Both the position numbers and the translations under genes were made by a program. The notes beneath the pieces were generated by a model. It was not told the origin of the DNA. It saw nothing but the letters and a program-made list of their open reading frames with translations, and made no database searches. From positions 1 through 19,738 of the forward strand of contig JBKGZT010000024.1 in the NCBI GenBank assembly GCA_046543235.1: a stretch of DNA of 19,738 bases, in the 5' to 3' direction. This DNA is from Candidatus Acetothermia bacterium. GTDB taxonomy: Bacteria > Bipolaricaulota > Bipolaricaulia > M55B111. This document shows, piece by piece, positions 66 through 17,196 of the stretch (position 1 is the stretch's first letter; the number at the start of each line of letters is the position of its first letter).

Positions 66-677
66 TCAAATCGGTATTATCAAAAATATCAGAACGCTCC
101 AGACCGAATGCGAGATGACTACGGGCAGCAGTTCGCCCTCCCGCGCGTAGAACCAGCTCCATCCCAGCCCGGCTACGAGCGCGGCCACAACAAGCGTCAG
201 GTTGAGAGACCAGACGTGGACGATGGCATACAGCAATGCTCCTGCAAATATACCAATCAGCCCGCCGTAGTTGTCCTCCAGCCACCTTTGCACTGTACCG
301 CGCCAGAAGATTTCCTCTCCGGGACCGATAATGAGCGCCAGCAGAAGACCTATAATGGGCAGCGCTGCCGAATCGGTATTGCCGTAAACTTCGGCGATCT
401 CGCTTTCGGCAAATGGAATAATTTCCACTATCAATAAATTCCCAAGCCAGAACACCCCGTACAGCATAAGCGCAGAAACTACTCCTAAACCTACGTTTCT
501 CGCCGTCAATTCACCAAACGGCTTATAATTCTTCCAAGAAATCAGCGACGTTATAGCAAGTATCGCTACGGAACCGGCCATCTCCAGCCAGAAGTTAAAC
601 GGGTTCAGGTAAAACGACACGAACCAGAGCCCAAATGCCATGATTACCATGGATGGCACCGTAATACCTCTTTTCAT
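66..677 (-). CDS. CPBP-family (CAAX protease type II / Abi) intramembrane glutamic endopeptidase
   Basis: Multi-pass hydrophobic protein with the CPBP motifs GEEIFWRG, YAIVH and SHSVW. Start moved to the ATG at 677 (MKRGITV), just after the menA stop, with AGGA upstream. Confidence 0.85.
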   Translation of the reverse strand: MKRGITVPSMVIMAFGLWFVSFYLNPFNFWLEMAGSVAILAITSLISWKNYKPFGELTARNVGLGVVSALMLYGVFWLGNLLIVEIIPFAESEIAEVYGNTDSAALPIIGLLLALIIGPGEEIFWRGTVQRWLEDNYGGLIGIFAGALLYAIVHVWSLNLTLVVAALVAGLGWSWFYAREGELLPVVISHSVWSVLIFLIIPI

Positions 678-687
678 TCTTCCGTTC

Positions 688-1572
688 CTATAAGACAACT
701 TCAAGCAAAATCGAAACCGTCAACAAACCACTAAAGGCGACGTCAAGCCGGGCGGTTCGGGCGTCGGCATCGTCGGGTATCTCTTCGACGAAGGTCTTAA
801 GTAGCTTGTATGCCAGGGGGAAGGACAGGAACACAAGAGCGCCCCATGGGCTCAACACTTCCTCCAGGATCAAATAGCCAAGAACCGAATAAGTCCCGAC
901 GGTAATGAGCAGGTACAATACGACGGCGTCCCGTTTATCCAGCAGGTTTGCGATCGTGTTTACCCCGGCTTTTTGGTCGTAAACCCTGTCCCTCAAGTTA
1001 TTCGCCAGGAGAGTCAGGGCGACCAGCAGCCCCAAGGGGATCGATACGAGAAATGGCAGGACGCCGATAGAACCCGATTGTACGTAGTAAGCACCCGTGA
1101 CCAGGAGTGGTCCCCAGACCAGAAATACGGCCACTTCGCCCCAGCCCCAGTACTTGTATTTTACCCCGCCGGTGTAGGAGTAACCCAAGACCACTCCCAA
1201 TATACCGATGGCCAGAACCAGTGGGCCAGAAACGTACGTCAGGTATAAGCCGATAACTATTCCCACCAGGTACATCCCCGAAAAATACGCCCTTATCTCG
1301 TTCGGTTCAAACCACTCTTCTACGAGCGGCTGTTGCCTGTACCTAGTAGTCGGAGACCCCTCTCTGTCCACTTCTTCCCGGAAATCGTAGTAATCGTTCG
1401 TCAGGTTTACAGCTCCGTGCAGCATAACTGTTCCGATTGCAACGAGTACCAGACGTAGAGTGTGGAAACCTCCCGTTCTCGCCGCCAGCAGCGACCCCAC
1501 CAGCACAGAACCCAAAGTCATCGGGAAGGACCAGGGGCGGCTACTGATCAGCAGGGCCTTGGCTTTGTTCAT
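688..1572 (-). CDS. menA: UbiA-family prenyltransferase, 1,4-dihydroxy-2-naphthoate polyprenyltransferase (MenA-like)
   Basis: N-terminal SRPWSFP, Asp-rich motifs NLTNDYYD and ANNLRDRVYD, KYxGWGE, and several TM helices. GGAG RBS upstream. Confidence 0.85.
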   Translation of the reverse strand: MNKAKALLISSRPWSFPMTLGSVLVGSLLAARTGGFHTLRLVLVAIGTVMLHGAVNLTNDYYDFREEVDREGSPTTRYRQQPLVEEWFEPNEIRAYFSGMYLVGIVIGLYLTYVSGPLVLAIGILGVVLGYSYTGGVKYKYWGWGEVAVFLVWGPLLVTGAYYVQSGSIGVLPFLVSIPLGLLVALTLLANNLRDRVYDQKAGVNTIANLLDKRDAVVLYLLITVGTYSVLGYLILEEVLSPWGALVFLSFPLAYKLLKTFVEEIPDDADARTARLDVAFSGLLTVSILLEVVL

Positions 1573-1593
1573 CTGTTCCCTCGATCTCCTCCG

Positions 1594-2682
1594 TTAAGAG
1601 AAGTCATCAAATAGGATATCGTCCTCGTCAACGCCGTAATCCTTTAACAGATCGATCGTCGCATCCATCATCGGAGGAGGCCCACAGAGGTAACCCTCCA
1701 TGTCCCATTCCTCCTGGAGATAGTCGTCCATAACCTCGGTAATCAATCCTACTTCTCCATCCCATTCCGGCTGAGACGAGTCAAGGGCCGGAACGTAGTT
1801 AAAGTTTTCGTGTTCCTCGGCCAGTTCATGAAGGTCCTCGTGGTAGTAGAGATCCTCCCGGGTCCTGGATCCGTAGAAGAGCCAGATCTCTCGATCCGTC
1901 CCCTCTTCCAGTTCCGAGAAGACGATTGACCTCAGCGGAGCGAGACCGACTCCTCCAGCTACCCCAATTATCTTCGCGTCGGTGTCCTGAACGTAGAAAT
2001 CCCCGAAAGGTCCGGTAAATTCTACTTCCTCACCTTCTTCGAGCTCATGGAGATAAGTGGAACCCAGCCCCCCTTCGATCAACTGTACCGTAAGCATGAC
2101 CTCCTCATGGACGCTCTCTTCCGAAGCAATCGAGTAGGCCCTGTCCACGGTATCTCCATCCGCCGGGACTTGAACCTGAACGTACTGGCCGGCTTTGAAG
2201 TCGATCGTTTCGGGCTCCTTTAGGTCGAATATAATTTCCTTGATCGAGGGGGTGACATCTCTGGTGGAGAGAACCTCGGCCTGGTACTTCTCGACCTCGA
2301 GGTATTTTGGCTCTATTTCCACCTTCATGTCTTCCCGAACCTTGACCTGACAGCTCAGGCGTACGCCATTTACGAGCTCTTCCCTCGTAAGCATCGGCTC
2401 TTCAGTCGGAAGGACGGGACCGCCACCTTCTTTCACCCTGGCCGTACAAAAACCACAGCTTCCCTGCCCACCGCAGGCGGAGGGGATATAAATCTCGTTT
2501 TGGGTGAATGCCTGAAGGAGAGTCGAACCCCCCTCGACCACGAACTCCTCTTCCCCGTCGTTCACGTCAACTGTAACGTCCTCGTATTCGGCGAAGAGCT
2601 TGTTCGCAATTACTAGCACCACGGCCAGGGAGCCTGCAACTACGTTAAGTACAATTATCGGACTTACATAACCCATCATCAC
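1594..2682 (-). CDS. nqrF: NqrF-like NADH-oxidising subunit (N-terminal TM anchor, [2Fe-2S] ferredoxin domain, FAD- and NAD-binding domains)
   Basis: SACGGQGSCGFC...RLSCQ [2Fe-2S] motif, RAYSIA FAD motif, AGGVGLAP, YLCGPPPM and C-terminal FDDF. It lies directly after the nqrE-like gene. Confidence 0.85.
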   Translation of the reverse strand: MMMGYVSPIIVLNVVAGSLAVVLVIANKLFAEYEDVTVDVNDGEEEFVVEGGSTLLQAFTQNEIYIPSACGGQGSCGFCTARVKEGGGPVLPTEEPMLTREELVNGVRLSCQVKVREDMKVEIEPKYLEVEKYQAEVLSTRDVTPSIKEIIFDLKEPETIDFKAGQYVQVQVPADGDTVDRAYSIASEESVHEEVMLTVQLIEGGLGSTYLHELEEGEEVEFTGPFGDFYVQDTDAKIIGVAGGVGLAPLRSIVFSELEEGTDREIWLFYGSRTREDLYYHEDLHELAEEHENFNYVPALDSSQPEWDGEVGLITEVMDDYLQEEWDMEGYLCGPPPMMDATIDLLKDYGVDEDDILFDDFS

Positions 2683-2695: not shown

Positions 2696-3277
2696 TTACT
2701 GTATTCCTACCATTCCGGAGAAACCGAGAAAGGCAAATGCCATAATCCCGGCTATCAACATCGTAATCCCCGGGCCCTGCAGGGGTTTCGGTACGTTCGC
2801 AAACCTCAGCTTTTCCCTGATAGAAGCCAAAGAAACTATGGCAACCATCCACCCGATCCCGCTACCGAGCGCGAAGATTATCCCGGTAAAGAAGGCGTAA
2901 TCCCTCAGTATCATGAACAGAGATACTCCCAGAATGGCGCAGTTTACGGTTATCAGAGGCAGGAAGACCCCCATAGTTGTATAAATGGAAGGGAAAAACC
3001 GCTCAATTACCATCTCAAGTACCTGAACGGTAGATGCGATAACTATTATGAAGGCGATGTACTGCAGGTACTCCAGTCCATAGGGAACCAGCAGGTAGTG
3101 GTAGACCGGCCAGTTGACTGCACTTGTAACCGTCATTACAAGGGTTACCGCAACTCCCATCCCCCATGCGGAAGAGAGCTTCTTGGACTGAGAAACGAGC
3201 GGGCACCAGCCAAGAAAATACCTGAGGGCGATGTTATGCGCGAATATAGCGGCAATAAGTATGGAAACGTATTGCAT
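2696..3277 (-). CDS. nqrE: NqrE / RnfA-family membrane subunit
   Basis: NIAL..FLGWCP, FLPLITVNCAILG and the NqrE-type C-terminus IREKLRFANVPKPLQGPGITM..AGIMAFAFLGFSG. Confidence 0.85.
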   Translation of the reverse strand: MQYVSILIAAIFAHNIALRYFLGWCPLVSQSKKLSSAWGMGVAVTLVMTVTSAVNWPVYHYLLVPYGLEYLQYIAFIIVIASTVQVLEMVIERFFPSIYTTMGVFLPLITVNCAILGVSLFMILRDYAFFTGIIFALGSGIGWMVAIVSLASIREKLRFANVPKPLQGPGITMLIAGIMAFAFLGFSGMVGIQ

Positions 3278-3278: not shown

Positions 3279-3878
3279 CTACTCCTCCTCCACGGGCGAG
3301 ATAGATCTTTCGACCCAGATCAGCAAACCGAGCACCAGAAAACCGCCGGGGGCCAGGATCATGCTAACCCACGGCGTCCAATCTGCTCCAAGAACCGAGA
3401 CACCAAACAAAGTGCCAAACCCCAGAAGCTCCCTAACCACCGACATGGCAATCAGGGCAACAGCAAATCCGGACGCAACGCCGGCGGCATCGACGACCGA
3501 ATCCCAGGGCGAGTTCTCGCTGGAAAATGATTCGAGTCGGCCGAGAATTATGCAGTTCGTAATTATCAGCCCGACGTATGCACCCAGAGCTTCGCTTAGC
3601 GGCATGAGGAAGGCCTGCAGGAAGATATAGACGAGCGTGACAAAAGTAGCGATAACCAGCATGAAAACGGGTATTCGTACCCTTCTCGGTACGGAATCAC
3701 CAATGACGGATACGATAAAGGAGCTGGCCGTGAGGACGAAAAAGACTGCAACTCCCATAGTCACTCCGTTTGCTACCCTGTTCGTAATCGCCAGAGTTAT
3801 ACACAACCCCAACATCTGGCGGAATACCGGGTTATCCTCCCATAGTCCTGCCATAAAGATGTCTTTGGTGTTATTCAT
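3279..3878 (-). CDS. nqrD: NqrD / RnfE-family membrane subunit
   Basis: NPVFRQMLGLCITLA, YVGLIITNCIILGRLE, VRELLGFGTLFG and LAPGGFL. Confidence 0.85.
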   Translation of the reverse strand: MNNTKDIFMAGLWEDNPVFRQMLGLCITLAITNRVANGVTMGVAVFFVLTASSFIVSVIGDSVPRRVRIPVFMLVIATFVTLVYIFLQAFLMPLSEALGAYVGLIITNCIILGRLESFSSENSPWDSVVDAAGVASGFAVALIAMSVVRELLGFGTLFGVSVLGADWTPWVSMILAPGGFLVLGLLIWVERSISPVEEE

Positions 3879-4485
3879 TGCCCAAACCCTCCATCACTTC
3901 ACCTGTCAGCACTTGGTTCTTCATTTGATCCACTTCGTCGTTGACAATTTCCTGTACGGCCTTGCTGGTCCGGGTCGCCCCGGTAATACCGTCTACCTCG
4001 TTTTCTCCTTCAGCGCCGCCCTGGACGATCCTCAATTCGGGCCGTACCTTCTTTCCGTCAAACTGATCGAGGAACCAATCCTCGGTGATCCTCGCTCCCA
4101 GACCCGGCGTCTCCTGCTGGCTCAGTATCTCCAATCCGACCACTGTCTCCAGGTCGGGCTTGAACGAGATTATTCCCTCGATCTGACCCTGGAATCCGGA
4201 ACCGGTCAACCTAAAGCTTATCGAGCTCAACTCTCCGGAGTCATCGTAGCGGAAGTACACGTCCCGGCCGTCTATCGTTTTGGATTCAAACTCGGACTTG
4301 AACTTCTCCTCCAGGTTTTCATCCGTATAATTAACCTTGGCCGACTTCAGCACGGACTCTCGTAGCTTCCTGGCCTGGTTCGCCTGTATTATCGGCCTGG
4401 TAGTGACGTTGACAAAACCCAGGACAGCAGCGCTTACCGTCGCAACCAGGACAAGTACCGTCACCATCCATATTTCTTTCTTCAT
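3871..4485 (-). CDS. nqrC: NqrC / RnfG-family FMN-binding subunit
   Basis: N-terminal TM helix, GSGFQGQI, ETPGLGARI and the covalent FMN motif DGITGATRTS. Confidence 0.85.
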   Translation of the reverse strand: MKKEIWMVTVLVLVATVSAAVLGFVNVTTRPIIQANQARKLRESVLKSAKVNYTDENLEEKFKSEFESKTIDGRDVYFRYDDSGELSSISFRLTGSGFQGQIEGIISFKPDLETVVGLEILSQQETPGLGARITEDWFLDQFDGKKVRPELRIVQGGAEGENEVDGITGATRTSKAVQEIVNDEVDQMKNQVLTGEVMEGLGNE

Positions 4486-4500: not shown

Positions 4501-5586
4501 TTATTTATAAGGTTTCTGAACTGGTCCAAACCGGAAAGTTATAACCATCTCATCCATCAGCGGAGCGAACATGTTCATAAGGAGGATTGAGAACATCACT
4601 CCCTCGGGGTAGCCGGAGAAAGCCCTCACGGATACCGTCATCACGCCGAGAAATACCCCGTACACCCAGCGGCCTTCCTTAGTGGTTGGCGAAGAGACGG
4701 GGTCTGTAGCCATGAACATGGCCCCAAACATCAGCCCACCCGCAAGCAACTGGAATACGGGAGGGGCAACCTGGTTTGGCCAGAGGTAGGTTCCAAGCAA
4801 CGAATACAGAAAAACCGAGCCCAGATAAGAAACCGGAATTCGCCAATCGATGATCTTCGTCATAATGAGAAATATCCCGCCAAGAATTACCAGCAAGGCG
4901 GAGGTTTCACCCAGACACCCGGGTATCGTACCGAAGAAGAGCTCCCGAAGAGGTGCGAGGGTTCCATCGTTGGCAAAAGAACCGAGGGGCGTAGCCGTGG
5001 TGGTAGCATCCACGCCGTATCGGGTAAAGCCCGCCCATCCTCCTGTAACCGGCTTTATCCACTCAGAAGACATTGCTACTGGAAAGGTCACGGTCAGGAA
5101 GACCCGGCCGACGAGCGCCGGATTGAATATGTTATACCCGGTACCGCCGAAGACCTCCTTACCAATGATGACCCCGAATATTATCCCGACCGCTACCATC
5201 CACAGCGGGGTACTCGGGGGCAGAATCAGGGGAAAGAGTATACCGGTAACCAGGAACCCTTCGGTTATCTCCTCCTTTCTGATCAGGGTAAACGTCACCT
5301 CGGCTATCCCACCTGCGACGTAGGATACTACGATCATCGCCAGAGCCCGCCACCCGTAGAAATAGATCGCCGCCAGCGTGGCAGGAAGTACCGCTAAAAC
5401 TACGGCAAACATATACCGTTTGATCTCTATATAGTCACGCAAAAAAGGACTCTCCGAGGCGGCTTCTCCTTGGTGAAAGACTATTGCCCGGATCGTCTCG
5501 ACTACTTCGGTTATATGCTTGAGATAGGGGTGACCTTCCGTATACTCTGCGAGATCCGACATCAGTTCGTCTAGTTTATTCAACAT
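4501..5586 (-). CDS. nqrB: NqrB / RnfD-family membrane subunit
   Basis: EGFLVTGILFPL, KEVFGGTGYNIFNPALVGR, FMN site DATTTATPL, PGCLGETS, FMATDPVS and YPEGVMFSILLMN. The N-terminal extension (PFLRDYIEIKRYM) resembles NqrB. Start set at the ATG at 5586 behind GAGGTG. Confidence 0.85.
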   Translation of the reverse strand: MLNKLDELMSDLAEYTEGHPYLKHITEVVETIRAIVFHQGEAASESPFLRDYIEIKRYMFAVVLAVLPATLAAIYFYGWRALAMIVVSYVAGGIAEVTFTLIRKEEITEGFLVTGILFPLILPPSTPLWMVAVGIIFGVIIGKEVFGGTGYNIFNPALVGRVFLTVTFPVAMSSEWIKPVTGGWAGFTRYGVDATTTATPLGSFANDGTLAPLRELFFGTIPGCLGETSALLVILGGIFLIMTKIIDWRIPVSYLGSVFLYSLLGTYLWPNQVAPPVFQLLAGGLMFGAMFMATDPVSSPTTKEGRWVYGVFLGVMTVSVRAFSGYPEGVMFSILLMNMFAPLMDEMVITFRFGPVQKPYK

Positions 5587-7069
5587 CTTCACCTCTATCT
5601 TGGTTTAGTCCAAGTTCAGCAGGTTTTAGCCCTTCCTCGGTTTCTTCGTACTTAACGTAGTTATCGATTTCCCCTGGCTGGGATTTCTTAGCGTCTTTCA
5701 GCGTCTCGCTCAAAGGTAGCTTGGACGGGCAGACGTAAGAGCACAAGCCGCAATCCACGCAGCGCTGAGGCTGGAGCCTGTTAACCTCGTCCACCATGTC
5801 GTGAGTATGAGTCTTGTATATCTGGAAGGGTAGGATGTCCACAGGACAGACTTCGCTACAGTAGCCACAATAGACACATGGTCTTTCCTCGCCGTGGAGC
5901 CCCGCATCTGACTTCTTCTTTTTATCGGGGAAAAGGGCAGACAGAAAGGCGTTGGTGTAAGAGTTCTTGGTCAACCCCGTCTGGATCCAGGCCAGCGTAT
6001 CGGTCTCCTTCGGCTCCTCAAGGCGGGTGAGAGAACTGTTCCCTTTGCCAACCGGTATATCAAGGTCATCCAACCTGATCCCGGTTAATGCTCCTCCGAG
6101 TATGTTCACATAGTCACCGTCCGTAGAGATATCGCTCCTTATAACTCTTCCCAGAGAACTACCAATTGGAACTTCGTAAAGGGCAGAATTTGCCCCTGGC
6201 CCGGTCAGACTAAACCTGTTCCGGACAAAAGGTACGCCCTCTTCCACGACTCGATAAGTTAGCAGAGGTACCAGTTCGTCCAGAGCGAGTATTCCGTGCT
6301 CGAGCAAAAAGCCCCCGGCATCCAGCCCCTCGACTCCCAATAGATCTCGGGCCAGGTACTTCGATTGATCCAGGTAACTTTCTCCGCTTACGGCATGAAC
6401 TTTGATCCTCTGACCCGACCCCATATCTTCCATCTCCCGGTAGGTCTCTTCGTCCAGAGCGAAGTGCAGCTGTGCATCCGGAAAACTTCGGGCAAGAATT
6501 CTAAGTCCCTTTTTGAAACTGGAAAGCTCATCTCCGTAATTAACCAGATGCCTGGCGAATGGAGAAATCCTAACTCCGTTTATCAGAATGGAATTGACGC
6601 TATCGGGCGGGAAATATGAGCTATTGAATTCGGTTGGAATCCCGGTCTGCCCAAAACCGGTAACTCCCCCCAGGTAAAGCAACTCCCTTAAGTTGGCGGG
6701 CTCTTCCTTCTCCCAGCTCACACCCTTTCCGGTAAGCTCCAGTCCCCCTTCCGCAGCAATTTTTACGGCAGGGATCATGTCATCAAGCCACTCCAGGGTT
6801 TCCTCGTGAAAGTATTCCAGTTCAACGATCTCCGCTACTTCGCCGTTCACGCTGGAATGAACCGGGGTGGATAGGGAGTTGTCATTGCGGGCAATTATCT
6901 CCCCCGCCTCGACTTTCTCTCCTTCACCTACGGATGGTTCCAGGGCAGACCCAAAGCCTCCTTTCAACGGTATAACCACTTCGTCCAACTTGCTAACCCT
7001 TCTAAAGGTCAGCTCGTCGTCCTCGTCCAGCTGGGTAAGATCTAAGCCAAATGTGTTCACTGTATTCAC
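5576..7069 (-). CDS. NqrA/RnfC hybrid subunit with two C-terminal [4Fe-4S] motifs
   Basis: RnfC/NqrA N-terminal barrel (VVIPL..GFG...V..GEKV..GE.IA...PVHSSVNGEV), an NqrA-like segment WIQTGLTKNSYTNAFLSALFP...LHGEER, and CVYCGYCSEVCP plus CVDCGLCSYVCP. The start is either the GTG at 7069 or the GTG at 7060 (behind GGTGA). Confidence 0.8.
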   Translation of the reverse strand: MNTVNTFGLDLTQLDEDDELTFRRVSKLDEVVIPLKGGFGSALEPSVGEGEKVEAGEIIARNDNSLSTPVHSSVNGEVAEIVELEYFHEETLEWLDDMIPAVKIAAEGGLELTGKGVSWEKEEPANLRELLYLGGVTGFGQTGIPTEFNSSYFPPDSVNSILINGVRISPFARHLVNYGDELSSFKKGLRILARSFPDAQLHFALDEETYREMEDMGSGQRIKVHAVSGESYLDQSKYLARDLLGVEGLDAGGFLLEHGILALDELVPLLTYRVVEEGVPFVRNRFSLTGPGANSALYEVPIGSSLGRVIRSDISTDGDYVNILGGALTGIRLDDLDIPVGKGNSSLTRLEEPKETDTLAWIQTGLTKNSYTNAFLSALFPDKKKKSDAGLHGEERPCVYCGYCSEVCPVDILPFQIYKTHTHDMVDEVNRLQPQRCVDCGLCSYVCPSKLPLSETLKDAKKSQPGEIDNYVKYEETEEGLKPAELGLNQDRGEDVE

Positions 7070-9431: not shown

Positions 9432-11138
9432 ATGGAGAACGACGTAACTTTTCTTCACCCCCCGAGCGTATTTGACTTCAGGGAGAGACCTATCCTCTGG
9501 GGACCGATTAACGATCTCGTCCCCTCCAAATCGGTCTTCGAGATGTATCCAATAGGGTTCGTCTCCATGGCGTCCACGCTGGAAAAAGAAGGATTCAGGA
9601 CCGACATAACCAACGTCGCGCTAAAAATGTTGAGGAGCCCTGATTTCGATCCAAAAGTATATTTACGAAAACTCGATTCCCGGATCTTCGCGATAGATCT
9701 CCACTGGCTCCCTCACGTCCACGGGGCAATTGAGCTAGCCAGGCTCTGTAAAGCAGTCCACCCGGATACGCCCATTCTGATGGGAGGACTCTCGGCTTCT
9801 TACTACCACGAGGAAATACTGGAAGAGATTCCGGAAGTGGATTTCGTGCTCCGGGGCGACTCGGTCGAAACTCCCCTCGTGAAGTTAGTGCGGGAATTTA
9901 ATGGCGGGCGAAACTACGAAGAAATTCCGAACCTGAGTTACAGAACGGATTCCGGCCCGAAGGTAAACCGGCTAAAGGCCGTACCGGCCGAGCTGGATTC
10001 CTTCTCCCTCGATTATGACTACGTTCTTCGGAGCCTGCTCAGGACGAAATCGTTAGATATTATGCCCTTCCAGGAATTCATTAAGAAGCCGATGATGACG
10101 GTCCTTACCCGGAAGGGATGCAACAGCAACTGCCCTGGCTGTGGCGGTTCTCGGTACTCCTACTCGGAGGTCTGCAACAGACGGAATGTCGCTTTTCGCT
10201 CCCCGAAGAAAGTTGTCGAGGATCTCAAAAATATATCCGATTACAAAACGCCTGCTTTTGTCATCGGAGATTTGAGTCACCCCGAACCGAACTACGGCCG
10301 TGAGATCTTCAGACTCCTGAGGGATGAAGATCTGGGTATTCCTGTCGTCTTCGAGTTCTTCAACCCCCCCAAAGAGGACTTCCTCAACGAACTGGGAAGC
10401 TCCGTGGAGAATTTTAGCATCGAGATGTCTCCCGAATCCGGAGTGGAAGAGGTCAGGCAGGGTGCCGGACGGGAATACGGCAATGAAGAACTGAGAAACG
10501 CGATAAAGTGGTCCTTCGAGTCCGGTTGCAAACAGTTCGATCTCTACTTCATGATAGGATTAAGCGGCCAATCGAGAAAGACCCTTTCGGATACCATGGA
10601 GTTCATCGACGACTTGCTGGGTAAAAACGAGGACGGAAACCTGATTCCCTTCATTTCGCCCTACAGCCCCTTCCTTGATCCCGGTTCACTTGCTTTCGAA
10701 TTTCCCGAGAAGTACGGCTTCACCAGATACGCCGAAAGCCTGATGGATCACTACAAGCTTCTGGATGAAGGTCTTACCTGGAAGGACTTCCTGAGCTACC
10801 GAACCGACGAACTGAGCCGGGAAGAGCTGGTAGACGTAACGTACGATTTCGCCGTCGAGCTCGCAGGGATCAAGGAAAGACATGGTATAATCACCCCCGA
10901 TAAGCTGGAAGAATTGAAGGAAAAGATTCATCTATCCAAAAGGATGATACGTCTCGCCGACGCAAAAGAGGATGGTTTGCTCGACGACGGCAGTGTAGAG
11001 GCCTCCCTGGTGGAACTCAAGGAAAGGCTCCTGATCGATCGTGACGAGCTCGACTGGTCCGACGGAATCACCGCTGAAAGGGTTTTCGCAGTAACGAGAA
11101 AAGTGCTGAAAAGCTTTTTCACCAGGGAAAGCGGTTGA
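9432..11138 (+). CDS. Cobalamin-binding radical SAM protein, resembling the Ta0216-type family (function unknown)
   Basis: N-terminal B12-binding-type domain (FLHPPSVFDFR...FEMYPIGF, IDLHWLPH, MGGLSASYY, DFVLRGD), CX3CX2C motif CNSNCPGC, SPESG and FMIGL. GGAG RBS 7 nt upstream. Confidence 0.85.
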   Translation: MENDVTFLHPPSVFDFRERPILWGPINDLVPSKSVFEMYPIGFVSMASTLEKEGFRTDITNVALKMLRSPDFDPKVYLRKLDSRIFAIDLHWLPHVHGAIELARLCKAVHPDTPILMGGLSASYYHEEILEEIPEVDFVLRGDSVETPLVKLVREFNGGRNYEEIPNLSYRTDSGPKVNRLKAVPAELDSFSLDYDYVLRSLLRTKSLDIMPFQEFIKKPMMTVLTRKGCNSNCPGCGGSRYSYSEVCNRRNVAFRSPKKVVEDLKNISDYKTPAFVIGDLSHPEPNYGREIFRLLRDEDLGIPVVFEFFNPPKEDFLNELGSSVENFSIEMSPESGVEEVRQGAGREYGNEELRNAIKWSFESGCKQFDLYFMIGLSGQSRKTLSDTMEFIDDLLGKNEDGNLIPFISPYSPFLDPGSLAFEFPEKYGFTRYAESLMDHYKLLDEGLTWKDFLSYRTDELSREELVDVTYDFAVELAGIKERHGIITPDKLEELKEKIHLSKRMIRLADAKEDGLLDDGSVEASLVELKERLLIDRDELDWSDGITAERVFAVTRKVLKSFFTRESG

Positions 11139-11182
11139 ACGGCGAGACCCGTTTAAATAAAGCACTTGGGGCTTTATCATAA

Positions 11183-11200
11183 TTGTGTGAACTATCACAA
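11183..11200. promoter_or_regulatory. Rex operator upstream of rex (autoregulation)
   Basis: 18-bp imperfect palindrome TTGTGTGAACTATCACAA versus the consensus TTGTGAA-N4-TTCACAA. It lies just after a CATAAT -10-like hexamer and before the rex RBS. Confidence 0.7.
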
Positions 11201-11215
11201 AGGGTGAAAAAGCTT

Positions 11216-11842
11216 TTGAGTAGACCGGAGTTCCCAAGAGAGACGATTAGAAGACTGCCACTCTACCTCAGGTGTCTCAACCGGCTGTTAATTCTGGGAG
11301 AAAAAACTCTTACCTCCAAGGAGCTTTCAGAATACCTGGGGGTAAAACCGGCCCAGTTAAGAAAGGACTTTTCATATTTCGGCGACTTCGGAACCCGGGG
11401 GGTCGGTTACGACCTGGAAAACCTCGTAAGCGAGATCAGGAGCATCCTGAGACTTGAAAAAGAATGGGAACTTGCCGTTGCCGGCATTGGAAACATCGGC
11501 GACTCCATTCTCGATCACCTTGAATTCAACCAACCTGGTTTCCGGATTACGGCGGCTTTTGACGAGGAACCCAAAATTATTGGCTCAACAGTTAGAGGAA
11601 TTAAAGTTCAAAACGTCTCGGAAATAGAAGAAGCTCTATCCGGAAATGAGATCCAGCTGGCCTTGCTCGCTGTATCTTCGGTCGAAGCCAGGAAGGTCGC
11701 TAACTCTCTTGTCAGCGCCGGAGTCAAGGGAATTATCAACCTCGCGCCGATATTCCTCAACCTGCCGGAAGAAATAGAAGTCGCGCAGATGGATCTATCC
11801 AGCGAGCTGGGACAGCTCGTTTACAACCTGAGAAAAAAATAA
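11216..11842 (+). CDS. rex: Redox-sensing transcriptional repressor Rex
   Basis: ETIRRLPLYLRCL, QLRKDFSYFGDFGTRGVGY winged helix, Rossmann motif AGIGNIG and GVKGIINLAP. Probable start is the TTG at 11216 behind AGGGTGA; the GTG at 11204 is an alternative. Confidence 0.93.
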   Translation: MSRPEFPRETIRRLPLYLRCLNRLLILGEKTLTSKELSEYLGVKPAQLRKDFSYFGDFGTRGVGYDLENLVSEIRSILRLEKEWELAVAGIGNIGDSILDHLEFNQPGFRITAAFDEEPKIIGSTVRGIKVQNVSEIEEALSGNEIQLALLAVSSVEARKVANSLVSAGVKGIINLAPIFLNLPEEIEVAQMDLSSELGQLVYNLRKK

Positions 11843-12145
11843 GCGAAGCACAATTTCTTCAACTCTACACGGAAACGTAATTACCGGTAAAAATCTTTTC
11901 CAAGTCTTCCCCGTCGTTATACTCCATTTAGTTACCCAAAAACCTCGGAGTATTTTTCCCGGAAAGTTCTTCTCAAACGTGTTGAAGACATTCTCCTTAC
12001 CTCCTGACGTATAACGTTCTGACTAATTTCATCTGGTTAATCCGGACTACGACAAGTTTGTCCGGCATTCAGATTACCTTTTTATATGGCAGATGCGAAA
12101 CATCCGGGACGTAAATATTTGCCGGAAACCCAACGCAACCAAAGC

Positions 12146-12173
12146 TTGACATGCGGGGAAGTTGCCTTATTAT
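12146..12173 (+). promoter_or_regulatory. Sigma-70 promoter of the chaperone-psrABC-rhodanese operon
   Basis: TTGACA (12146-12151), a 16-nt spacer and TATTAT (12168-12173). Confidence 0.7.
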
Positions 12174-12175
12174 AT

Positions 12176-12193
12176 ATGCGAAAGTTTTCACAA
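12176..12193. promoter_or_regulatory. Rex operator overlapping the predicted psr transcription start
   Basis: ATGCGAAAGTTTTCACAA matches 12 of 14 conserved positions of TTGTGAA-N4-TTCACAA and begins 2 nt after the -10 box. Confidence 0.75.
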
Positions 12194-12302
12194 CCTCTTA
12201 TATTTTCAAGGTTTATGTTTAAAAACTGCGTATATTCACCGGTGACACGCCACTATGACAAACGGAGAGAGCGCTAAAACAAAACAGATCTACGGGGATA
12301 CC

Positions 12303-12953
12303 ATGAAAAAAACAATCAAGGATTGGCGACCCGTCCTGTATAAATTGGCCGCAACCGGTTTCTCCTATCCCGGCCTCCCTCTTGCAGAATCCCTTACCTC
12401 CGGAAAGTTCCTTTTCGGTATGGAAAAGATCTCCAAAGGTTATCAGCTTGGACTCGGAGCCGAAATAAGAGAGGTCGAGAAAAACCTATCAACTGAAAAC
12501 CCCAAGGAACTTCTCGGAGTACTCGAAAGCGAGTACGTAAGGCTATTTCTGGCCGACGTAGGAGGGGCAAAGGTAAATCCCTTTGGCTCTCACTACCTAG
12601 ACGGCAGAGTCATGGGTAAAAGCGTTGATAAGGTCGTTAGAAAATTCGGCAGGGCCGGAATGGCCAAACGGGAGGGCTACCAGGGTCCGCCGGACGATAT
12701 TGCAGTCGAGCTCGAGTACTTGTTCAAGGTTACACAAATGGAGGACAAAAGCTCCCCTAAACACCTTTCCGAGCACGCCGACTTCTACGACGAACTACTC
12801 GGCCCGTGGCTGGGGGAGTTTACCGAGGCGGTAAAGAACGAAACCGACATGGAATTCTACGCGGTACTGGCGGACTGGGTTTGTAAGGGGCTGGAAGCCG
12901 ATCGAGAACTAATCGAAAACCTTCTCAAGGAAGGAAATATCCGTGGAGTTTGA
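12303..12953 (+). CDS. TorD/DmsD-family molybdoenzyme maturation chaperone
   Basis: EYVRLF, NPFGSHY, PPDDIAVELEYL, LGPWLGEF and FY..LA. It sits directly upstream of a Tat-exported molybdoenzyme. Start set at the ATG at 12303 behind GGGGA. Confidence 0.8.
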   Translation: MKKTIKDWRPVLYKLAATGFSYPGLPLAESLTSGKFLFGMEKISKGYQLGLGAEIREVEKNLSTENPKELLGVLESEYVRLFLADVGGAKVNPFGSHYLDGRVMGKSVDKVVRKFGRAGMAKREGYQGPPDDIAVELEYLFKVTQMEDKSSPKHLSEHADFYDELLGPWLGEFTEAVKNETDMEFYAVLADWVCKGLEADRELIENLLKEGNIRGV

Positions 12954-12991
12954 GAGGAAAATAACCACGATCAGGGGGTAACAAAGTCAAA

Positions 12992-15283
12992 ATGACCGAA
13001 TTCAACAGAAGAGATTTTCTCAAGCTTTCTGCCGCAACTGCCGGTGCTCTCGCCCTTCAGGGTACGGGGATTATGGAGGACCGAGAGGTCAGGGCCGCAC
13101 CCAACTACTGGTGGGAGGAAGAAACCTCCACCAAGTTCAGCTATTGCGACATGTGCTACTGGAACTGCGGAATAAAAGCGGAAGTAACCGACGGTCGAGT
13201 TGCGAAAATTTACGGCGACGAGAACGACCCGCTTAGCCAGGGCAATCTTTGCCCAAGGGGGCAGGCCGGAGTCCGACAGGTATACAACCCTGATAGGTTA
13301 AAGCAACCTATGATAAGTACCGGGGAGCGAGGAGAAAAAAAGTACAGAAAGGCGAGCTGGTCCGAAGCCCTCGACTACACGGCCGAGCAGCTCCACAAGG
13401 TCAGCGAAGACTGGGACGGCCCCGAGTCAATCGCCTGGCTGAATCACTGTACCAGCGGCTCCTGGTTTAGCCATATAGCCGCCGCCTGGGGAAGCCCGAA
13501 CACAGGCGGTCCCGCACATTCACTCTGCCTCGGCTCCCGTGAGATCGCTTCCCAGTTGACCTTCGGTTTACCGGTTGGCGAGCACATGCCGGTGGATTGG
13601 GAAAACACAAAATTTATTACCTTAATCGGAAACCATATCGGGGAAAACACTCACAATACTCTGATGAAGGATTTCATGAGTGCAGTAGACGGGGGTGCCG
13701 GACTTGCTGTGGTCGATCCCCGCTACTCTACCCCGGCAAGCAAGTCGGACTACTGGTTGCCGATCAAACCCGGTACGGACACGGCACTCCTACTTTCCTG
13801 GATAAACCTCTTGATCAGGGAAAACCGCTACGACAGGAACTACGTGGAAGAGTACGCGACCGGTTTCCAGGAACTGAAGAATCGGGTTCAGGATTACACG
13901 CCGGAATGGGCAGCTGAAATAACGGACCTCGAGCAGAGAAAGATAGAAGAGGTCGGAAGGGAAATGGCTCGTTACCGACCACACGCTGTCGTTCCTCCAA
14001 ACAGGAAGGCCTCCTGGTACGGCAACGATACTCAGAGATTGAGGGCACTTTTCATCCTCAACGCCCTGCTCGGCAACTACGGCCGTGAAGGTGGTTTCTA
14101 CTTTAGCTCGGAACCCTGGATTGAGGATTACTCCTTCCCCTCCATGAAACTCGACAACTCCGGAGGCGGCTGCGGCGGAGGCGGGGGCGCTCTCGGAGAA
14201 GATACTTTACCGGAAGACGTCAGGGATAGAGCTGATAGAAAGGGCGAGAAGTTCCTCTACGGCAGCCTGTCCGAGCCGGAGTTGATCGAAGCAATGGCCT
14301 CCGAGGATCCCTACCCGATAAAGGGGCTCGTCGTTACGGGGAATAATATATTCCACTCCGCCCCGAAAAAGGAGAGGACCAAGGAAGCCCTGAAAAACCT
14401 TGACTTTTACATGGCGATGGATATATTGCCTCAGGAACACGTGATGTGGGCTGACGTGGTGCTGCCGGAATCGACCTACCTGGAACGCTATAACGACTTA
14501 TTTATCGGCCATCATAAATCCACCCCCTTCATAAGTTTTAGAGAACCGGCAGTTGATCCTCTCTACAACACCAAGCCAGGCTGGTGGATAGCGAAGGAAC
14601 TGGGTGAGAGGCTCGGATTCGGGGAGTACTTCCCTTTTGACGATTTCGAGGAATACCTCAACGAAAGGCTCGATCCCCTCGACCTTTCCGTCGAGGACAT
14701 GAAGGAAAAAGGAAGGGCCAAACAACCCCAGTTAAGCCAGCCCTACCTGGAGGATTTCGAATCTCAAAATCAGGATCCACCTTTCGGGACGCCCAGCGGA
14801 AAAATCGAACTATACTCGGAGCGGCTCGAGGAGAACGACCTGGATCCCGTCCCCACCTATGAGGACCCGGAAGAGCCTCCGGATGGGTTTTTCAGGCTCC
14901 TGTACGGTCGTTCCCCGGTCCACTCGTTCTCGCGTACTCAGAACAACTCCTGGCTTTCCGAAGTCGATCCGGAAAACGAGGTCTGGATCAATTCCGAAGC
15001 CGCCGAGGAGTTGGGATTGGAAGGAGGAGAATACGTGGTACTGGAGAATCAGGACGGGAATAAGTCGAGGCCGATTAAAGTCAAGAAGACCGAGAGGATC
15101 CGTGACGACTGTGTTTACATGGTCCACGGTTTCGGACACGACACCCCGGAAATGGAGAGACAGGACGGTAAGGGGGCAAGCGACATTGAGATGCAGAGCG
15201 ATTACGCACTCGATCCCATCTCCGGATCGGTGGGAATGAACGTAAATTACGTCAGGGTAGCAGAGAGAGGAGGTATTTCCTGA
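12992..15283 (+). CDS. psrA: Polysulfide/thiosulfate reductase catalytic subunit (PsrA/PhsA-type bis-MGD oxidoreductase)
   Basis: Tat signal NRRDFLK, FS0 motif CDMCYWNC...LCPRG, Cys metal-ligand region HSLCLG, GNHIGENTHN, ADVVLPESTYLER, TPSGKIEL and a C-terminal MGD domain (GRSPVHSFSRT, VYMVHGFG). Confidence 0.88.
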   Translation: MTEFNRRDFLKLSAATAGALALQGTGIMEDREVRAAPNYWWEEETSTKFSYCDMCYWNCGIKAEVTDGRVAKIYGDENDPLSQGNLCPRGQAGVRQVYNPDRLKQPMISTGERGEKKYRKASWSEALDYTAEQLHKVSEDWDGPESIAWLNHCTSGSWFSHIAAAWGSPNTGGPAHSLCLGSREIASQLTFGLPVGEHMPVDWENTKFITLIGNHIGENTHNTLMKDFMSAVDGGAGLAVVDPRYSTPASKSDYWLPIKPGTDTALLLSWINLLIRENRYDRNYVEEYATGFQELKNRVQDYTPEWAAEITDLEQRKIEEVGREMARYRPHAVVPPNRKASWYGNDTQRLRALFILNALLGNYGREGGFYFSSEPWIEDYSFPSMKLDNSGGGCGGGGGALGEDTLPEDVRDRADRKGEKFLYGSLSEPELIEAMASEDPYPIKGLVVTGNNIFHSAPKKERTKEALKNLDFYMAMDILPQEHVMWADVVLPESTYLERYNDLFIGHHKSTPFISFREPAVDPLYNTKPGWWIAKELGERLGFGEYFPFDDFEEYLNERLDPLDLSVEDMKEKGRAKQPQLSQPYLEDFESQNQDPPFGTPSGKIELYSERLEENDLDPVPTYEDPEEPPDGFFRLLYGRSPVHSFSRTQNNSWLSEVDPENEVWINSEAAEELGLEGGEYVVLENQDGNKSRPIKVKKTERIRDDCVYMVHGFGHDTPEMERQDGKGASDIEMQSDYALDPISGSVGMNVNYVRVAERGGIS

Positions 15284-15846
15284 TGACCAGTTACGCGCTA
15301 GCAGTTGACTTGAAAAAGTGCGTGGGCTGTAAGGCCTGCGTGATTGCGTGCAAGGCAGAAAACGAGGTCCCCGATGGCGTATTTCGCCTGACTACCTACG
15401 AAGTCGAGAAGGGATCATTTCCCGAAGTCGATACGGAATTAAGACACGATCAATGCAGGCACTGTGAAACCGCACCCTGCGTTTCCGTCTGCCCCACAAA
15501 GGCCAGTTACACGGACGATGAAGGGTTTGTTCGAATTGATTACTCAAAGTGTATCGGGTGCAAGGCCTGCATGGTGGCCTGCCCTTACGATGCCCGCTTC
15601 ATCAACCCGGAAGGCGGCTACGCCGACAAATGTACTTACTGTATTCACAGGGTCAAGGAAGGTAAGGACCCCGCATGCGTCAATACCTGCCCGACCGGCG
15701 CGAGGGTCTTCGGGGACCTGGACGACCCAGACAGCGAGATAAGAAAGAGGATCCGGAACAACAGGGTGTCGGCACCCAAGGAGGAAGCGGGCACAAAGCC
15801 CAAATTCTATTACCTAAACAAAGAACTAGAGGAGGTGAAGACCTAA
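15283..15846 (+). CDS. psrB: Four-cluster Fe-S subunit (PsrB/NrfC type)
   Basis: CVGCKACVIAC, CRHCETAPCVSVCP, CIGCKACMVACP and KCTYC...PACVNTCP. TGATG overlap with psrA. Confidence 0.9.
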   Translation: MTSYALAVDLKKCVGCKACVIACKAENEVPDGVFRLTTYEVEKGSFPEVDTELRHDQCRHCETAPCVSVCPTKASYTDDEGFVRIDYSKCIGCKACMVACPYDARFINPEGGYADKCTYCIHRVKEGKDPACVNTCPTGARVFGDLDDPDSEIRKRIRNNRVSAPKEEAGTKPKFYYLNKELEEVKT

Positions 15847-16700
15847 TGGAAATTAGTGTCGCAAACGGCATACAGCATATCTGGGAGTGGCCGGTCGCTC
15901 TACATTTCGTCCTCTCCGCACTTGTCGGTGGCCTGATTGGAATTGCCGGCTTCTCCAGGTTGATAAACAGGGATCAAGCAGCCAGAGTCGCCACGTATAT
16001 TGCTTTCCCACTTCTGATAGTCGACCTACTGATTCTTTGGCTGGACTTAACCAGGGGTCTGCTTGCGTTCTGGTTGTTTCTCAGCTTTAGAGCAACGGCC
16101 GCCATCAGCTGGGGATCCTGGGCCCTGCTGCTGACTTCGCTCGTGAGCGTTATCTACCTGGCCGAATACTTAGGTTATCTAAAACTTCCCCGGGCCGCTG
16201 ACAACGTGATCAACTGGAGCGCCATGGGGCTGGCGATCGCAGTTACCACCTATACCGGAGCCATGCTCACTTCAAGTATGGCGGCAATGCCTCTCGCGAG
16301 TTCAATGCTGCTCGCTCCCCTCTTCTCTGTCTCCGCGATCGCGATGGCCGGCGGTTTGCTTGAACTGGTCAACGTGGAGCGAACGATTTCCGCCTGGGCT
16401 CTTACGATCGCTTCAGTCGCGTCCGCCGTTCTATTCGGTTTTTACGTGGGAGAGTTATACGGCGGGAACCTTTCGGTGCAGGAAGCCTACGCCCACCTGG
16501 TCGGAAACTACGGGCTGATATGGTGGCTAACAATCGGTATCGGCTTCGGCCTGCCGGCAGTGCTGGCGGTGGCCTGGATGACTTCCCAGACTCAAAGAAA
16601 AAAGCTCATCTGCTGTGTCACAAAGGCTGTTGCACTATTTTCACTATTTGGCGGAGCAGGTATTAGGTTTGTTCTTTTAATGGCCGGACAGGGCCATTAA
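15846..16700 (+). CDS. psrC: NrfD/PsrC-family quinol-oxidising membrane anchor
   Basis: Real start is the ATG at 15846 (TAATG overlap with psrB, GAGGAGG upstream). Motifs WEWPVALHF, LWLDL, SWGSW, TYTGAML and GIRFVLLMAGQ; about 8 TM helices. Confidence 0.85.
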   Translation: MEISVANGIQHIWEWPVALHFVLSALVGGLIGIAGFSRLINRDQAARVATYIAFPLLIVDLLILWLDLTRGLLAFWLFLSFRATAAISWGSWALLLTSLVSVIYLAEYLGYLKLPRAADNVINWSAMGLAIAVTTYTGAMLTSSMAAMPLASSMLLAPLFSVSAIAMAGGLLELVNVERTISAWALTIASVASAVLFGFYVGELYGGNLSVQEAYAHLVGNYGLIWWLTIGIGFGLPAVLAVAWMTSQTQRKKLICCVTKAVALFSLFGGAGIRFVLLMAGQGH

Positions 16701-16737
16701 GAAAATCAATCAAAGGCACATCTGGAGGTGTGCAGAC

Positions 16738-17196
16738 TTGAACACTTTTAGCAGGAAAACTCTGTCAGTACTGACGCTCTTTCTTGTAGTGCTATTTGCT
16801 GGCTCTCTGGCAGTTACGGCTCAGGAGGAGCCCGTAGTTGGCGCAGTGGACGAATTTCTAAACGATGTCCACGAGGAGGGCTTTTACCTGGCGGACCAGG
16901 AGGAGGTCAATAAACAGCGGAAGGTAAGACCGAACCTCTTTATCCTGGACGTAAGGACTCCGGGCGAAGTAGAGGAAGGAACCGTCCCCGGAGCCACGAC
17001 CATCAGGCTCAGTGAACTCGCACGGAGCCTGGACGAACTGCCCGAGGACAAGGACACCACCATGTACGTTTACTGCAAGGGCGGGGACAGAGCAGCCTAC
17101 GCAGTTGCTATTCTCCATACTCTCGGATACACTGAGGCATACAGCATGGGCGGCTTCGTCGACTGGAAGGAAGCCGGCTACCCGGTAGAAGAATAA
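16738..17196 (+). CDS. Exported single-domain rhodanese / polysulfide sulfurtransferase (Sud-like)
   Basis: TTG start behind GGAGGTG, Sec-type signal peptide (..SLAVTA-QE), ILDVRTPGE, active-site loop YCKGGDRA and GGFVDWKEAGYPV. Confidence 0.85.
   Translation: MNTFSRKTLSVLTLFLVVLFAGSLAVTAQEEPVVGAVDEFLNDVHEEGFYLADQEEVNKQRKVRPNLFILDVRTPGEVEEGTVPGATTIRLSELARSLDELPEDKDTTMYVYCKGGDRAAYAVAILHTLGYTEAYSMGGFVDWKEAGYPVEE

Follow-up and report, generated by a model that had tools for sequence, protein, structure and literature searches.

Does a member of a phylum described as acetogenic or fermentative carry a quinone-linked outlet for NADH, and is that outlet switched on when NADH builds up? The question is raised by contig JBKGZT010000024.1 of a Candidatus Acetothermia bacterium (assembly GCA_046543235.1), a stretch of 19,738 nucleotides that we analysed as a whole and call the window. 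It encodes an ion pump resembling NADH:quinone oxidoreductase (NQR), genes for prenylating and methylating a quinone, an enzyme of the radical S-adenosylmethionine (SAM) type from family TIGR04190, the repressor Rex and a polysulfide reductase-type (Psr) molybdenum enzyme. A sequence-only reading of this DNA had taken these genes for a self-contained, Rex-controlled module that runs a complete ion-pumping sulfur respiration. We find that the locus consists of two units and is not one indivisible module. On balance we favour the interpretation that a hypersaline lineage of Bipolaricaulota carries it as an accessory island for respiration, whose two units re-oxidise NADH with a sulfur compound and so act as an electron sink.

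The window is the whole of contig C4 of genome bin G000 (1.32 Mb, 97 contigs, 87% complete). G-codes denote Bipolaricaulota genomes, G000 being the source bin; L-codes denote loci and C-codes contigs. Family comparisons covered 19 genomes and class comparisons 41 genomes that are 70–99% complete. The family relatives are kin and not independent samples, and phyletic counts are given as a pattern, not as a statistic. Synteny was read from the corresponding contigs of family relatives, onto which the window proteins were mapped, and bit-score cut-offs are the curated cut-offs of TIGR/NCBIfam models. All genes named in the sequence-only reading were found intact at positions 66–17196, by domain and curated model matches (Table 1). 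Unit A comprises menG-ispB and nqrA'BCDEF-menA-CPBP, two transcription units on the minus strand, and the divergent TIGR04190 gene. Unit B comprises rex, a Rex box and torD-psrABC-rhodanese.

The catalytic subunit of unit B matched PsrA of Thermus thermophilus over its full length (2vpw; 914 bits, E 1e-273, residues 5–757), with the next solved relative at 207 bits. The reductase read earlier from the letters, accompanied by its chaperone and exported rhodanese, is on this match a true member of the Psr/Phs type. The cassette shares its A, B and C subunits, twin-arginine (TAT) export, four-cluster B subunit, NrfD-type anchor, accessory rhodanese and TorD-type chaperone with PsrABC of T. thermophilus (2vpw–2vpz), Psr and Sud of Wolinella succinogenes and PhsABC of Salmonella. 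It differs from them in its dedicated Rex repressor, in its PhsA score below cut-off and in belonging to a phylum described as acetogenic or fermentative. The open reading frame listed for PsrC starts at 15675, and a plausible start is Met58, at about 15846. A selenocysteine suspected in PsrA of G015 was rejected, the reported in-frame TGA being the natural stop.

Which compound this enzyme reduces is the point on which the favoured interpretation meets its most serious alternative, namely that the acceptor is tetrathionate, arsenate, selenite or an S- or N-oxide and that there is no sulfur respiration. The substrates of Psr/Phs/Ttr/Arr-type enzymes, this one included, are not readable from sequence; the match to the PhsA equivalog (NF012032) reached 484 bits, below its cut-off of 694, and a related pump locus has an ArrA-like enzyme instead. 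Against the 914 bits for T. thermophilus PsrA, however, ArrA gives just 132 bits and the TtrA model 65, and an exported rhodanese follows psrC here and in six relatives, which points to sulfane sulfur as the probable cargo. The same arrangement is known from Wolinella, whose Psr is assisted by a sulfur transferase. An acceptor other than polysulfide or thiosulfate is, on this evidence, rather unlikely.

PsrC was the sole NrfD-family match in G000. It was also the only quinol-oxidising anchor among those searched in five family genomes, where cytochrome bd, Sdh_cyt, cytochrome b561 and a NarI-type cytochrome b were all looked for and not found. The search for a hydrogenase or formate dehydrogenase anchor of the cytochrome b561 type was likewise negative. 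A candidate complex I was rejected as well: the sole NuoD-like gene, on contig C40, belongs to an Mbh/Mrp-type hydrogenase-like complex. Since no others were found among the systems searched, the pump is the one quinone reductase recognised in G000, and Psr its one recognised quinol oxidase. The C40 locus (L138) itself encodes a NiFe large-subunit-like NuoD, NuoC, NuoH and Mrp antiporter subunits, preceded by FNR-like, Fer4_22 and four-cluster subunits, and resembles ferredoxin-dependent hydrogen- or sulfur-reducing complexes.

We scanned for Rex operators with the consensus TTGTGAA-N4-TTCACAA. A candidate operator abuts the -10 element of the psr promoter, the layout that would be expected of a repressor-controlled promoter. 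Across the regions upstream of torD, a box with at most two mismatches stands at the same place in 10 of 10, from two genera. When these ten regions are aligned the mean column identity is 42%, and 18 of the 19 invariant columns lie within 12148–12193 (-35, -10 and box), so that no island other than this promoter with its operator is conserved in the region. In all ten family loci with rex, that gene too is preceded by a box, which has no more than two mismatches in five of them and 3–4 in the other five; in the window the box comes just after a -35/-10-like pair at 11152–11180 (promoter-like site, 9/12). The rex gene adjoins the psr cassette in eight of the eight cassettes whose contig continues, and G000 has a second rex gene on contig C16 (45% identity). 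A third match, with three mismatches, lies within torD at 12720. The window thus has three matches against 0.69 expected, a number reached in 6 of 200 shuffles, and the genome-wide count in G000 shows no enrichment (2 sites with at most two mismatches against about 4 expected). These counts alone are weak; the boxes at 11183 and 12176, both proposed earlier, are credible because they sit on promoters and are conserved in relatives.

Beyond psr and rex the picture changes. At the nqr promoter a half-site, ATTCACAA, directly follows the -10 element, and as a full box it has five mismatches here, four in G010 and three in G015. The divergent region between menG and the radical SAM gene of the window has nothing better than six mismatches. 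The case for predicted Rex control is thus good at psr and rex and weak at nqr, and nothing speaks for it at menG and the radical SAM gene; the claim of a Rex-controlled module is supported for the first pair of targets and unsupported for the module as a whole. In distant metagenome lineages, rex lies beside the same pump type in six loci, three of which have a box with at most two mismatches upstream of the rex/pump operon or cluster; the predicted link between Rex and this pump type is recurrent.

The available part of PMC5317091, citing Ravcheev et al. 2012, gives the Rex consensus as TTGTGAANNNNTTCACAA and has Rex repressing NADH-oxidising genes at low NADH/NAD+. As far as that excerpt describes them, Rex regulons share with this locus the consensus, an operator overlapping the promoter, rex autoregulation and NADH-oxidising targets; the difference here is a polysulfide-reductase operon as target, with its own dedicated rex paralogue. 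A literature search joining the Rex regulon and polysulfide found nothing.

Two further observations concern regulatory sites. The only other Rex-box match with at most two mismatches in G000 is on contig C49 at about 1423 (L135), with a SAM synthetase gene on one side and, about 176 bases downstream on the other, an operon encoding a BCCT transporter and an MttB-family methyltransferase; this may be a Rex-controlled methylated-amine or glycine-betaine operon. Separately, an 18-base element, ATGTAAC-N4-TGCACAA, is conserved with small variations in the menG/radical-SAM divergent regions of L024, L025, L027, L028 and L030. These are the five longest such regions (502–1537 bases as scanned), and the element is 4–5 mismatches from the Rex consensus. 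Four of these loci extend far enough to show what follows rex (G003, G008, G009 and G012), and in none of them is it psr. The element may be the site of another regulator.

Comparison across the family separates the two units. The order of unit A is kept in all 11 family contigs spanning that unit (nine complete, two cut by contig ends); in G008 nqrF is absent from the operon and lies on another contig. Eleven contigs include the other side; 10 of them have rex after the radical SAM gene, and the psr cassette follows it beside unit A in four: G000, G015, G018 and G010, the contig of the last breaking off after torD. The rex paralogue of G003, G009 and G012 is another one (45–48% identical to the window Rex) and leads directly into ThiS/MoaD/AOR genes, and G008 has neither rex nor psr at the unit A locus. 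Nine of the 19 family genomes gave a PsrA match, and in G010 the remainder of the operon is present. The sequence-only reading had described one block and had named unlinked gene groups in related genomes as the observation that would speak against it. The comparison shows the NQR/quinone/radical-SAM part linked in 11 of 11 contigs and the rex-psr part separable, so that the predicted unlinking is borne out in part for psr and not for the other genes.

Taken to its extreme, this separability would make the units functionally independent: rex-psr-rhodanese would be a self-regulated, movable operon whose Psr takes quinol from any source, and its adjacency to unit A would be meaningless. Each cassette found does come with a rex and an operator of its own, and where psr is missing beside unit A the radical SAM gene has another rex paralogue as neighbour. 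The G003 cassette is on another contig, between sugar-transport genes and its own rex; G002 has two cassettes; and G008, G009 and G012 (84–90% complete) keep unit A with no psr found, so unit A must also work without Psr. The distribution of psr argues otherwise. All 10 psr-bearing family genomes carry at least part of unit A, and psr was found in none of the four family genomes without it (G011, G013, G016 and G017). The pump has no competitor as quinone reductase among the systems searched, namely complex I and cytochrome b561-type hydrogenase or formate dehydrogenase anchors, and in a distant metagenome lineage a molybdenum reductase with a TorD-type chaperone stands beside the same pump type. 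We consider full independence quite unlikely, and retain two separable units that would work together in the genomes that carry both.

The six pump genes of unit A, on the minus strand, begin with A at 7069 and proceed alphabetically to F, which ends at 1594, and all their products score between NQR and RNF models. With the Na+-NQR of Vibrio cholerae the complex shares the six genes A–F, the domains of NqrF (membrane helix, 2Fe-2S ferredoxin domain and FAD/NADH reductase domain, with Cys70/76/79/111 and RAYS and GxGxxP motifs), four cysteines in the D and E subunits, flavinylation-type motifs (DGITGAT at NqrC residues 164–170 and DATTTAT in NqrB) and the acidic residues of NqrB. The latter, E98, D297 and D347, align with E144, D346 and D397 of V. 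cholerae NqrB, important residues of an acidic ion path. Among the class genomes, NqrF is confined to this family. We predict NADH:quinone activity and ion export for this NQR-like, NqrF-bearing pump; its co-operonic placement with menA, together with ispB and menG, bears out the earlier claim of an NQR-like complex linked to quinone tailoring genes.

The A subunit, encoded by nqrA', sets the complex apart. It has two intact CxxCxxCxxxCP [4Fe-4S] motifs with eight cysteines, both motifs being invariant in 14 aligned relatives. Its best solved relatives are RnfC (7zc6, 92 bits) and NqrA (7xk3, 45 bits), and all its model scores fall below cut-off (84–118 bits to NqrA models with cut-offs of 321–450, 159 bits to rnfC with a cut-off of 246). 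A domain search for Complex1_51K (PF01512) gave no match in it, and the FMN/NADH motif is degenerate, GMGGATFPT of RnfC reading GFGQTGIPT here. The complex shares with RNF a homologous membrane core and an A subunit whose best solved relative is RnfC, and differs from RNF in that NqrF replaces RnfB in the operon and that the A subunit lacks Complex1_51K and an intact GGAxFPT motif. Contig C47 of G000 encodes a separate canonical Rnf that includes RnfB and a complete RnfC (531 bits); its RnfB is the only one found, the pump operon of the window having none. With a canonical Rnf elsewhere, the pump of the window is an extra and different complex. Relative to that canonical Rnf, the B, C and E subunits of the window are shifted toward NQR models (nqrB 319 against 208 bits, nqrE 228 against 196), the canonical RnfD scoring 208–228 bits to nqrB models and 324 to rnfD.

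In the accessible parts of a 2025 review and a 2014 paper on the origin of NQR, RnfB as well as the cofactor sites of RnfC were lost, NqrF was gained, and NqrA is without cofactors, whereas the A subunit here keeps both [4Fe-4S] motifs. By its sequence features, the complex looks like the RNF-to-NQR intermediate of that published scenario. Reduction of menaquinone by NQR in an anaerobe is described in the part of PMC12174285 available to us. Like the NQR and fumarate reductase chain of Segatella/Prevotella bryantii (PMC12174285 and PMC8516057, as far as accessible), the present complex would link the re-oxidation of a fermenter's NADH to an anaerobic quinol oxidase; the Segatella/Prevotella chain ends in fumarate reductase, whereas the one proposed here ends in Psr and its operon includes menA, ispB and menG.

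The same kind of pump occurs well beyond Bipolaricaulota. Homologues of the A subunit with the same motifs are found in records labelled Omnitrophota, Planctomycetota and Poribacteria, among others, and we collected 78 non-Bipolaricaulota metagenome loci with the same pump type, in which nqrF follows nqrE in 26 of the 40 loci reaching nqrE. Neighbours of the pump in the 78 loci include ispB (11), rex (6), menA (4) and a TorD-type chaperone (3). This repeated company of ispB, menA and chaperone is the best evidence here for a prenylquinone as acceptor. Three loci (L203, L199 and L209) have an ArrC/ArrB/ArrA-like molybdenum reductase, a TorD-type chaperone and a polyprenyl synthase directly upstream of the pump and a MobA/MobB gene downstream of it; the ArrA-like protein scores 1191 bits to the ArrA model, below its cut-off of 1600. 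These loci are of the same architecture with another terminal reductase. Three others (L154, L155 and L201) show a variant in which the gene after nqrE encodes the membrane helix and 2Fe-2S domain of NqrF only, fused to or followed by NuoE-, ferredoxin- and NuoF-like genes (in L201 also a NuoG-N-like one), with rex and/or menA-ispB alongside.

The kept iron-sulfur motifs could be read in another way, in which the NqrF-bearing complex is an Rnf-like, ion-coupled transhydrogenase variant and not a quinone reductase, with NADH entering at NqrF and the A-subunit [4Fe-4S] clusters feeding a cytoplasmic acceptor such as ferredoxin, a thiol/disulfide or another protein, while the adjacent quinone genes serve other enzymes. 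The invariance of both motifs across the A-subunit group fits such a complex, as do RnfC as best solved relative, relatives that keep the complex with no recognised quinol oxidase, and the metagenome loci in which NuoE/NuoF-like modules take the place of the FNR part of NqrF and mark the input end as plastic. It is at odds with the arrangement in 11 of 11 family loci, where menA comes after nqrF at a spacing that is close in terms of translation and ispB-menG immediately precede the pump genes, with menA or ispB flanking the same pump type in 14 distant metagenome loci, with the degenerate RnfC-type FMN/NADH motif and missing Complex1_51K match, and with B and E subunits nearer NqrB and NqrE than those of the canonical Rnf that the genome already has. 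We therefore judge a transhydrogenase improbable and continue with a quinone reductase.

The quinone genes around the pump are those of the late steps. MenA has its Asp-rich motifs, its best solved relative being UBIAD1 (8djk, 130 bits), and MenA-like genes are present in several families of the class. Together with menG and the polyprenyl synthase this recalls bacteria that salvage 1,4-dihydroxy-2-naphthoate (DHNA) or other menaquinone precursors and have the same genes with no ring pathway found; group B streptococci, for example, keep only MenA and MenG for precursor salvage. The difference here is that the salvage genes are built into a respiratory pump operon and that no importer was identified.

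The TIGR04190 enzyme, divergent from menG, is of the cobalamin type. Its radical SAM motif CxxxCxxC lies at residues 230–237 (Cys230/234/237), and in its structural model (pLDDT 86) the nearest folds are TsrM (E 1.5e-19, TM 0.58), then TokK, MgmA, OxsB and CysS. These are cobalamin radical SAM enzymes, mostly methyltransferases. When the TIGR04190 alignment was used as a sequence profile against the PDB, there was no match at E ≤0.01, and a literature search on TIGR04190 or Ta0216 found nothing. The known menaquinone C-methyltransferases MqnK, MenK and MenK2 are class C, HemN-like enzymes, whereas TIGR04190 is class B and of another fold family; HemN ranks at TM 0.25 against the model, the window has no HemN-type family among its NCBIfam matches, and no HemN_C protein of the class C MenK/MqnK type was found in five family genomes. 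The likeness between them is one of proposed function, an extra methylation of the naphthoquinone, with no family membership.

Among 77 TIGR04190 loci of other lineages, a UbiE/MenG gene lies directly downstream in six and MenA/UbiA close upstream in five; the radical SAM gene interrupts a complex I operon, with nuoC and nuoD as neighbours, in four Dehalococcoidia loci (L049, L050, L058 and L103), is flanked by a polyprenyl synthase and nuoA in one, and adjoins a UPP synthase in eight Methanomassiliicoccales loci. No quinone- or prenyl-type neighbour was seen in 53 of the 77, where genes for MoxR ATPases (10) are commonest among the others, along with thioredoxin-like ones (5). In two genomes of the class the context is again quinone-related: a second TIGR04190 paralogue lies by menA in G012 and menA-ispB stands ahead of a TIGR04190 gene in G020. 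TIGR04190 is a large family across phyla, and the present locus is among the clearest contexts pointing to quinone chemistry. From this context its probable role is quinone tailoring, for which one additional C-methylation would be the simplest form; chemistry on the polyprenyl chain is a possible alternative. In G012, contigs C58, C69 and C77 hold two TIGR04190 genes and two NqrF genes, one of the former (693 bits) adjoining menA on C69; the block may be partly duplicated there, or the bin may hold two strains (contamination 5%).

Several results weigh against an NADH-to-sulfur chain of this kind. To those met above, namely the PhsA score, the cassette of G003 on another contig, and the three genomes with unit A in which psr was not found (for G008 and G012 the search for other quinol oxidases was also negative), four are added. 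The [4Fe-4S] motifs kept in the A subunit are not needed by a quinone-reducing NQR. An ApbE flavin transferase was found in two of four relatives, at contig ends, and not in the 87% complete G000. The third concerns the quinone ring: MqnA/D (PF02621) was found in 0 of the 41 class genomes, 23 of which are at least 90% complete, MenB over cut-off in 0 of the 19 family genomes, and in G000 neither MqnC nor a MenD over cut-off (a 48-bit match to a ThDP enzyme only). With no Men or Mqn ring genes found, the head group would come from outside or from a route beyond the known two; the chain would not be autonomous, its quinone head group is putative, and the claim that the module is self-contained falls.

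The fourth point is energetic. Midpoint potentials are about -320 mV for NADH, -74 mV for menaquinone, -260 to -275 mV for polysulfide/sulfide and -400 mV for thiosulfate. Electron transfer from menaquinol to polysulfide or thiosulfate is uphill unless a lower-potential quinone or the membrane potential helps, which gives a rationale for a methylated, low-potential quinone; 8-methylmenaquinone has a lowered potential and serves polysulfide respiration in Wolinella. From NADH to polysulfide the span is only about 60 mV. With so small a span, a Rex-gated NADH sink fits better than high-yield respiration, and complete ion-pumping sulfur respiration, as first proposed, was an overstatement. In sum, what the sequence-only reading observed is confirmed, and its interpretation is partly supported.

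The mechanism that we propose runs as follows. Unit A would make a prenylated and methylated quinone from a ring precursor not made by either known route, probably scavenged DHNA or menadione. NADH would enter at NqrF, and electrons would pass through the NqrD/E iron centre and the flavins of NqrC and NqrB to the quinone, which we infer to be the acceptor, with export of Na+ or H+. The TAT-exported reductase, presumably acting on polysulfide or thiosulfate, would oxidise the quinol through PsrC, the exported rhodanese supplying it with sulfane sulfur. At low NADH/NAD+, Rex would occupy the operator abutting the -10 element of the near-consensus psr promoter; on NADH build-up it would leave and the sulfur sink would be made. 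The energy gain would be modest at best. What the sequences show in this scheme is which genes are present, how their operons are laid out, that promoter and operator are conserved and how the units are distributed among genomes; the acceptor role of the quinone, the exported ion, the sulfur substrate and the scavenging of the ring are inferred.

Table 1. Features of the window, in order of position, with the matches on which each assignment rests
Feature	Position	Strand	Evidence
CPBP/CAAX-type intramembrane protease, last gene of nqr-menA operon	66-704	-	PF02517 58 bits; after menA in 9 family loci
MenA-type 1,4-dihydroxy-2-naphthoate (or menadiol) polyprenyltransferase	688-1572	-	TIGR00751 109.8 bits (cut-off 102); PF01040
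NqrF	1594-2682	-	TIGR01941 307 bits (cut-off 295); Fer2, FAD_binding_6, NAD_binding_1
NqrE/RnfA membrane subunit	2696-3277	-	nqrE 228 bits, rnfA 210; Cys25, Cys113
NqrD/RnfE membrane subunit	3279-3878	-	RsxE 205 bits, nqrD 194; Cys26, Cys109
NqrC/RnfG FMN-binding subunit	3871-4485	-	PF04205; rnfG 104 bits, nqrC 84-92
NqrB/RnfD subunit	4501-5592	-	nqrB 319-328 bits, rnfD 297
A subunit (nqrA'), RnfC/NqrA intermediate	5576-7069	-	RnfC_N and Fer4 domains
nqr operon promoter TTGACA-16-TATAAT	7316-7343	-	12/12 consensus; in 390-base ispB-nqrA' gap
Long-chain polyprenyl diphosphate synthase (IspB/HepT-like)	7459-8490	-	PF00348 231 bits; HepT model 268, below cut-off 457
MenG/UbiE demethylmenaquinone methyltransferase	8450-9190	-	TIGR01934 222 bits (cut-off 158); PF01209 217
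TIGR04190 cobalamin-type (class B) radical SAM enzyme (B12-binding, Ta0216 family)	9432-11138	+	603 bits (cut-off 500); PF02310, PF04055; divergent from menG
Rex box 1	11183-11200	+	3 mismatches; 16 bases before likely rex start 11216
rex, psr-associated paralogue	11216-11842 (alternative start 11183)	+	NF003995 235 bits (cut-off 126); GxGxxG
psr operon promoter TTGACA-16-TATTAT	12146-12173	+	11/12 consensus; in 413-base rex-torD gap
Rex box 2, candidate operator abutting psr -10	12176-12193	+	2 mismatches
TorD/NarJ-type chaperone for Mo enzyme	12255-12953	+	PF02613 71 bits
PsrA/PhsA catalytic Mo-bisPGD subunit, twin-arginine signal	12992-15283	+	TAT_signal match; Fe4S4 Cys motif
PsrB four-cluster ferredoxin subunit	15283-15846	+	Fer4_11 90 bits; 16 Cys in four cluster motifs
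PsrC NrfD-type quinol-oxidising anchor	15846-16700	+	PF14589 55 bits, PF03916 45 bits
Exported single-domain rhodanese (Sud-like)	16738-17196	+	PF00581 57 bits; hydrophobic signal-peptide-like N-terminus; CKGGDRA at single Cys113

Public sequencing runs containing this DNA are labelled as metagenomes from hypersaline lakes and microbial mats; among those listed for 5000–14900, none is an RNA dataset. In public run X3 a single contig of 20,418 bases covers 9439–14000 and so bridges the junction between rex and psr. Unitigs in three other runs break at 12308–12422, in the 5' part of torD; a structural break was rejected, the breaks being a 115-base bubble of two alleles that differ at five positions and coexist in the three runs. 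This is strain-level variation within the population. All four runs of this assembly check come from a single study, possibly that of the source sample. At the other end of the locus, contigs of five relatives (L023, L024, L025, L029 and L032) start within about 150 bases of the window's beginning, just outside the CPBP gene; such a recurrent assembly break suggests a repeat or variable region there. On the far side of psr, 17261–19642 of the window holds a tungsten/molybdenum aldehyde:ferredoxin oxidoreductase (AOR) gene, then a MoaD/SAMP-like gene and a second ThiS-fold gene. This trio is conserved in that place and comes directly after rex in relatives without psr.

In the available part of PMC11287216, Bipolaricaulota (OP1/Acetothermia) are modelled as acetogens or fermenters that conserve energy with Rnf and hydrogenases. 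Literature on Bipolaricaulota and menaquinone, judged by titles and the starts of abstracts, held nothing on this locus, and a search on Acetothermia and Nqr returned only work on other phyla. The chain would be new in part: the succession of NQR, menaquinone and an anaerobic reductase is already known, and this variant stands out by an A subunit with iron-sulfur motifs, by the TIGR04190 enzyme and by a ring pathway that was not found. A wider and decidedly more tentative proposal, which we think possible and would not call likely, joins these elements. The pump would represent a widespread, undescribed NQR class with RnfC-type [4Fe-4S] clusters in its A subunit, a living RNF-to-NQR intermediate that reduces menaquinone and is commonly wired to Rex. 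TIGR04190 would tailor the naphthoquinone in place of class C MenK/MqnK, the resulting low-potential quinone making Psr feasible, and Bipolaricaulia would either depend on precursors from the community or hide a third route to the ring.

If the interpretation favoured here is true, one lineage of hypersaline Bipolaricaulota would gain a respiratory outlet and a sulfide-producing role from quinone-dependent, NADH-fed sulfur reduction that responds to an excess of NADH, and the apparent lack of ring synthesis would tie that outlet to quinone precursors from its neighbours. An NqrF-type complex that retains iron-sulfur motifs, here and in many metagenome loci, would also make the cofactor-loss step in the origin of NQR experimentally accessible.

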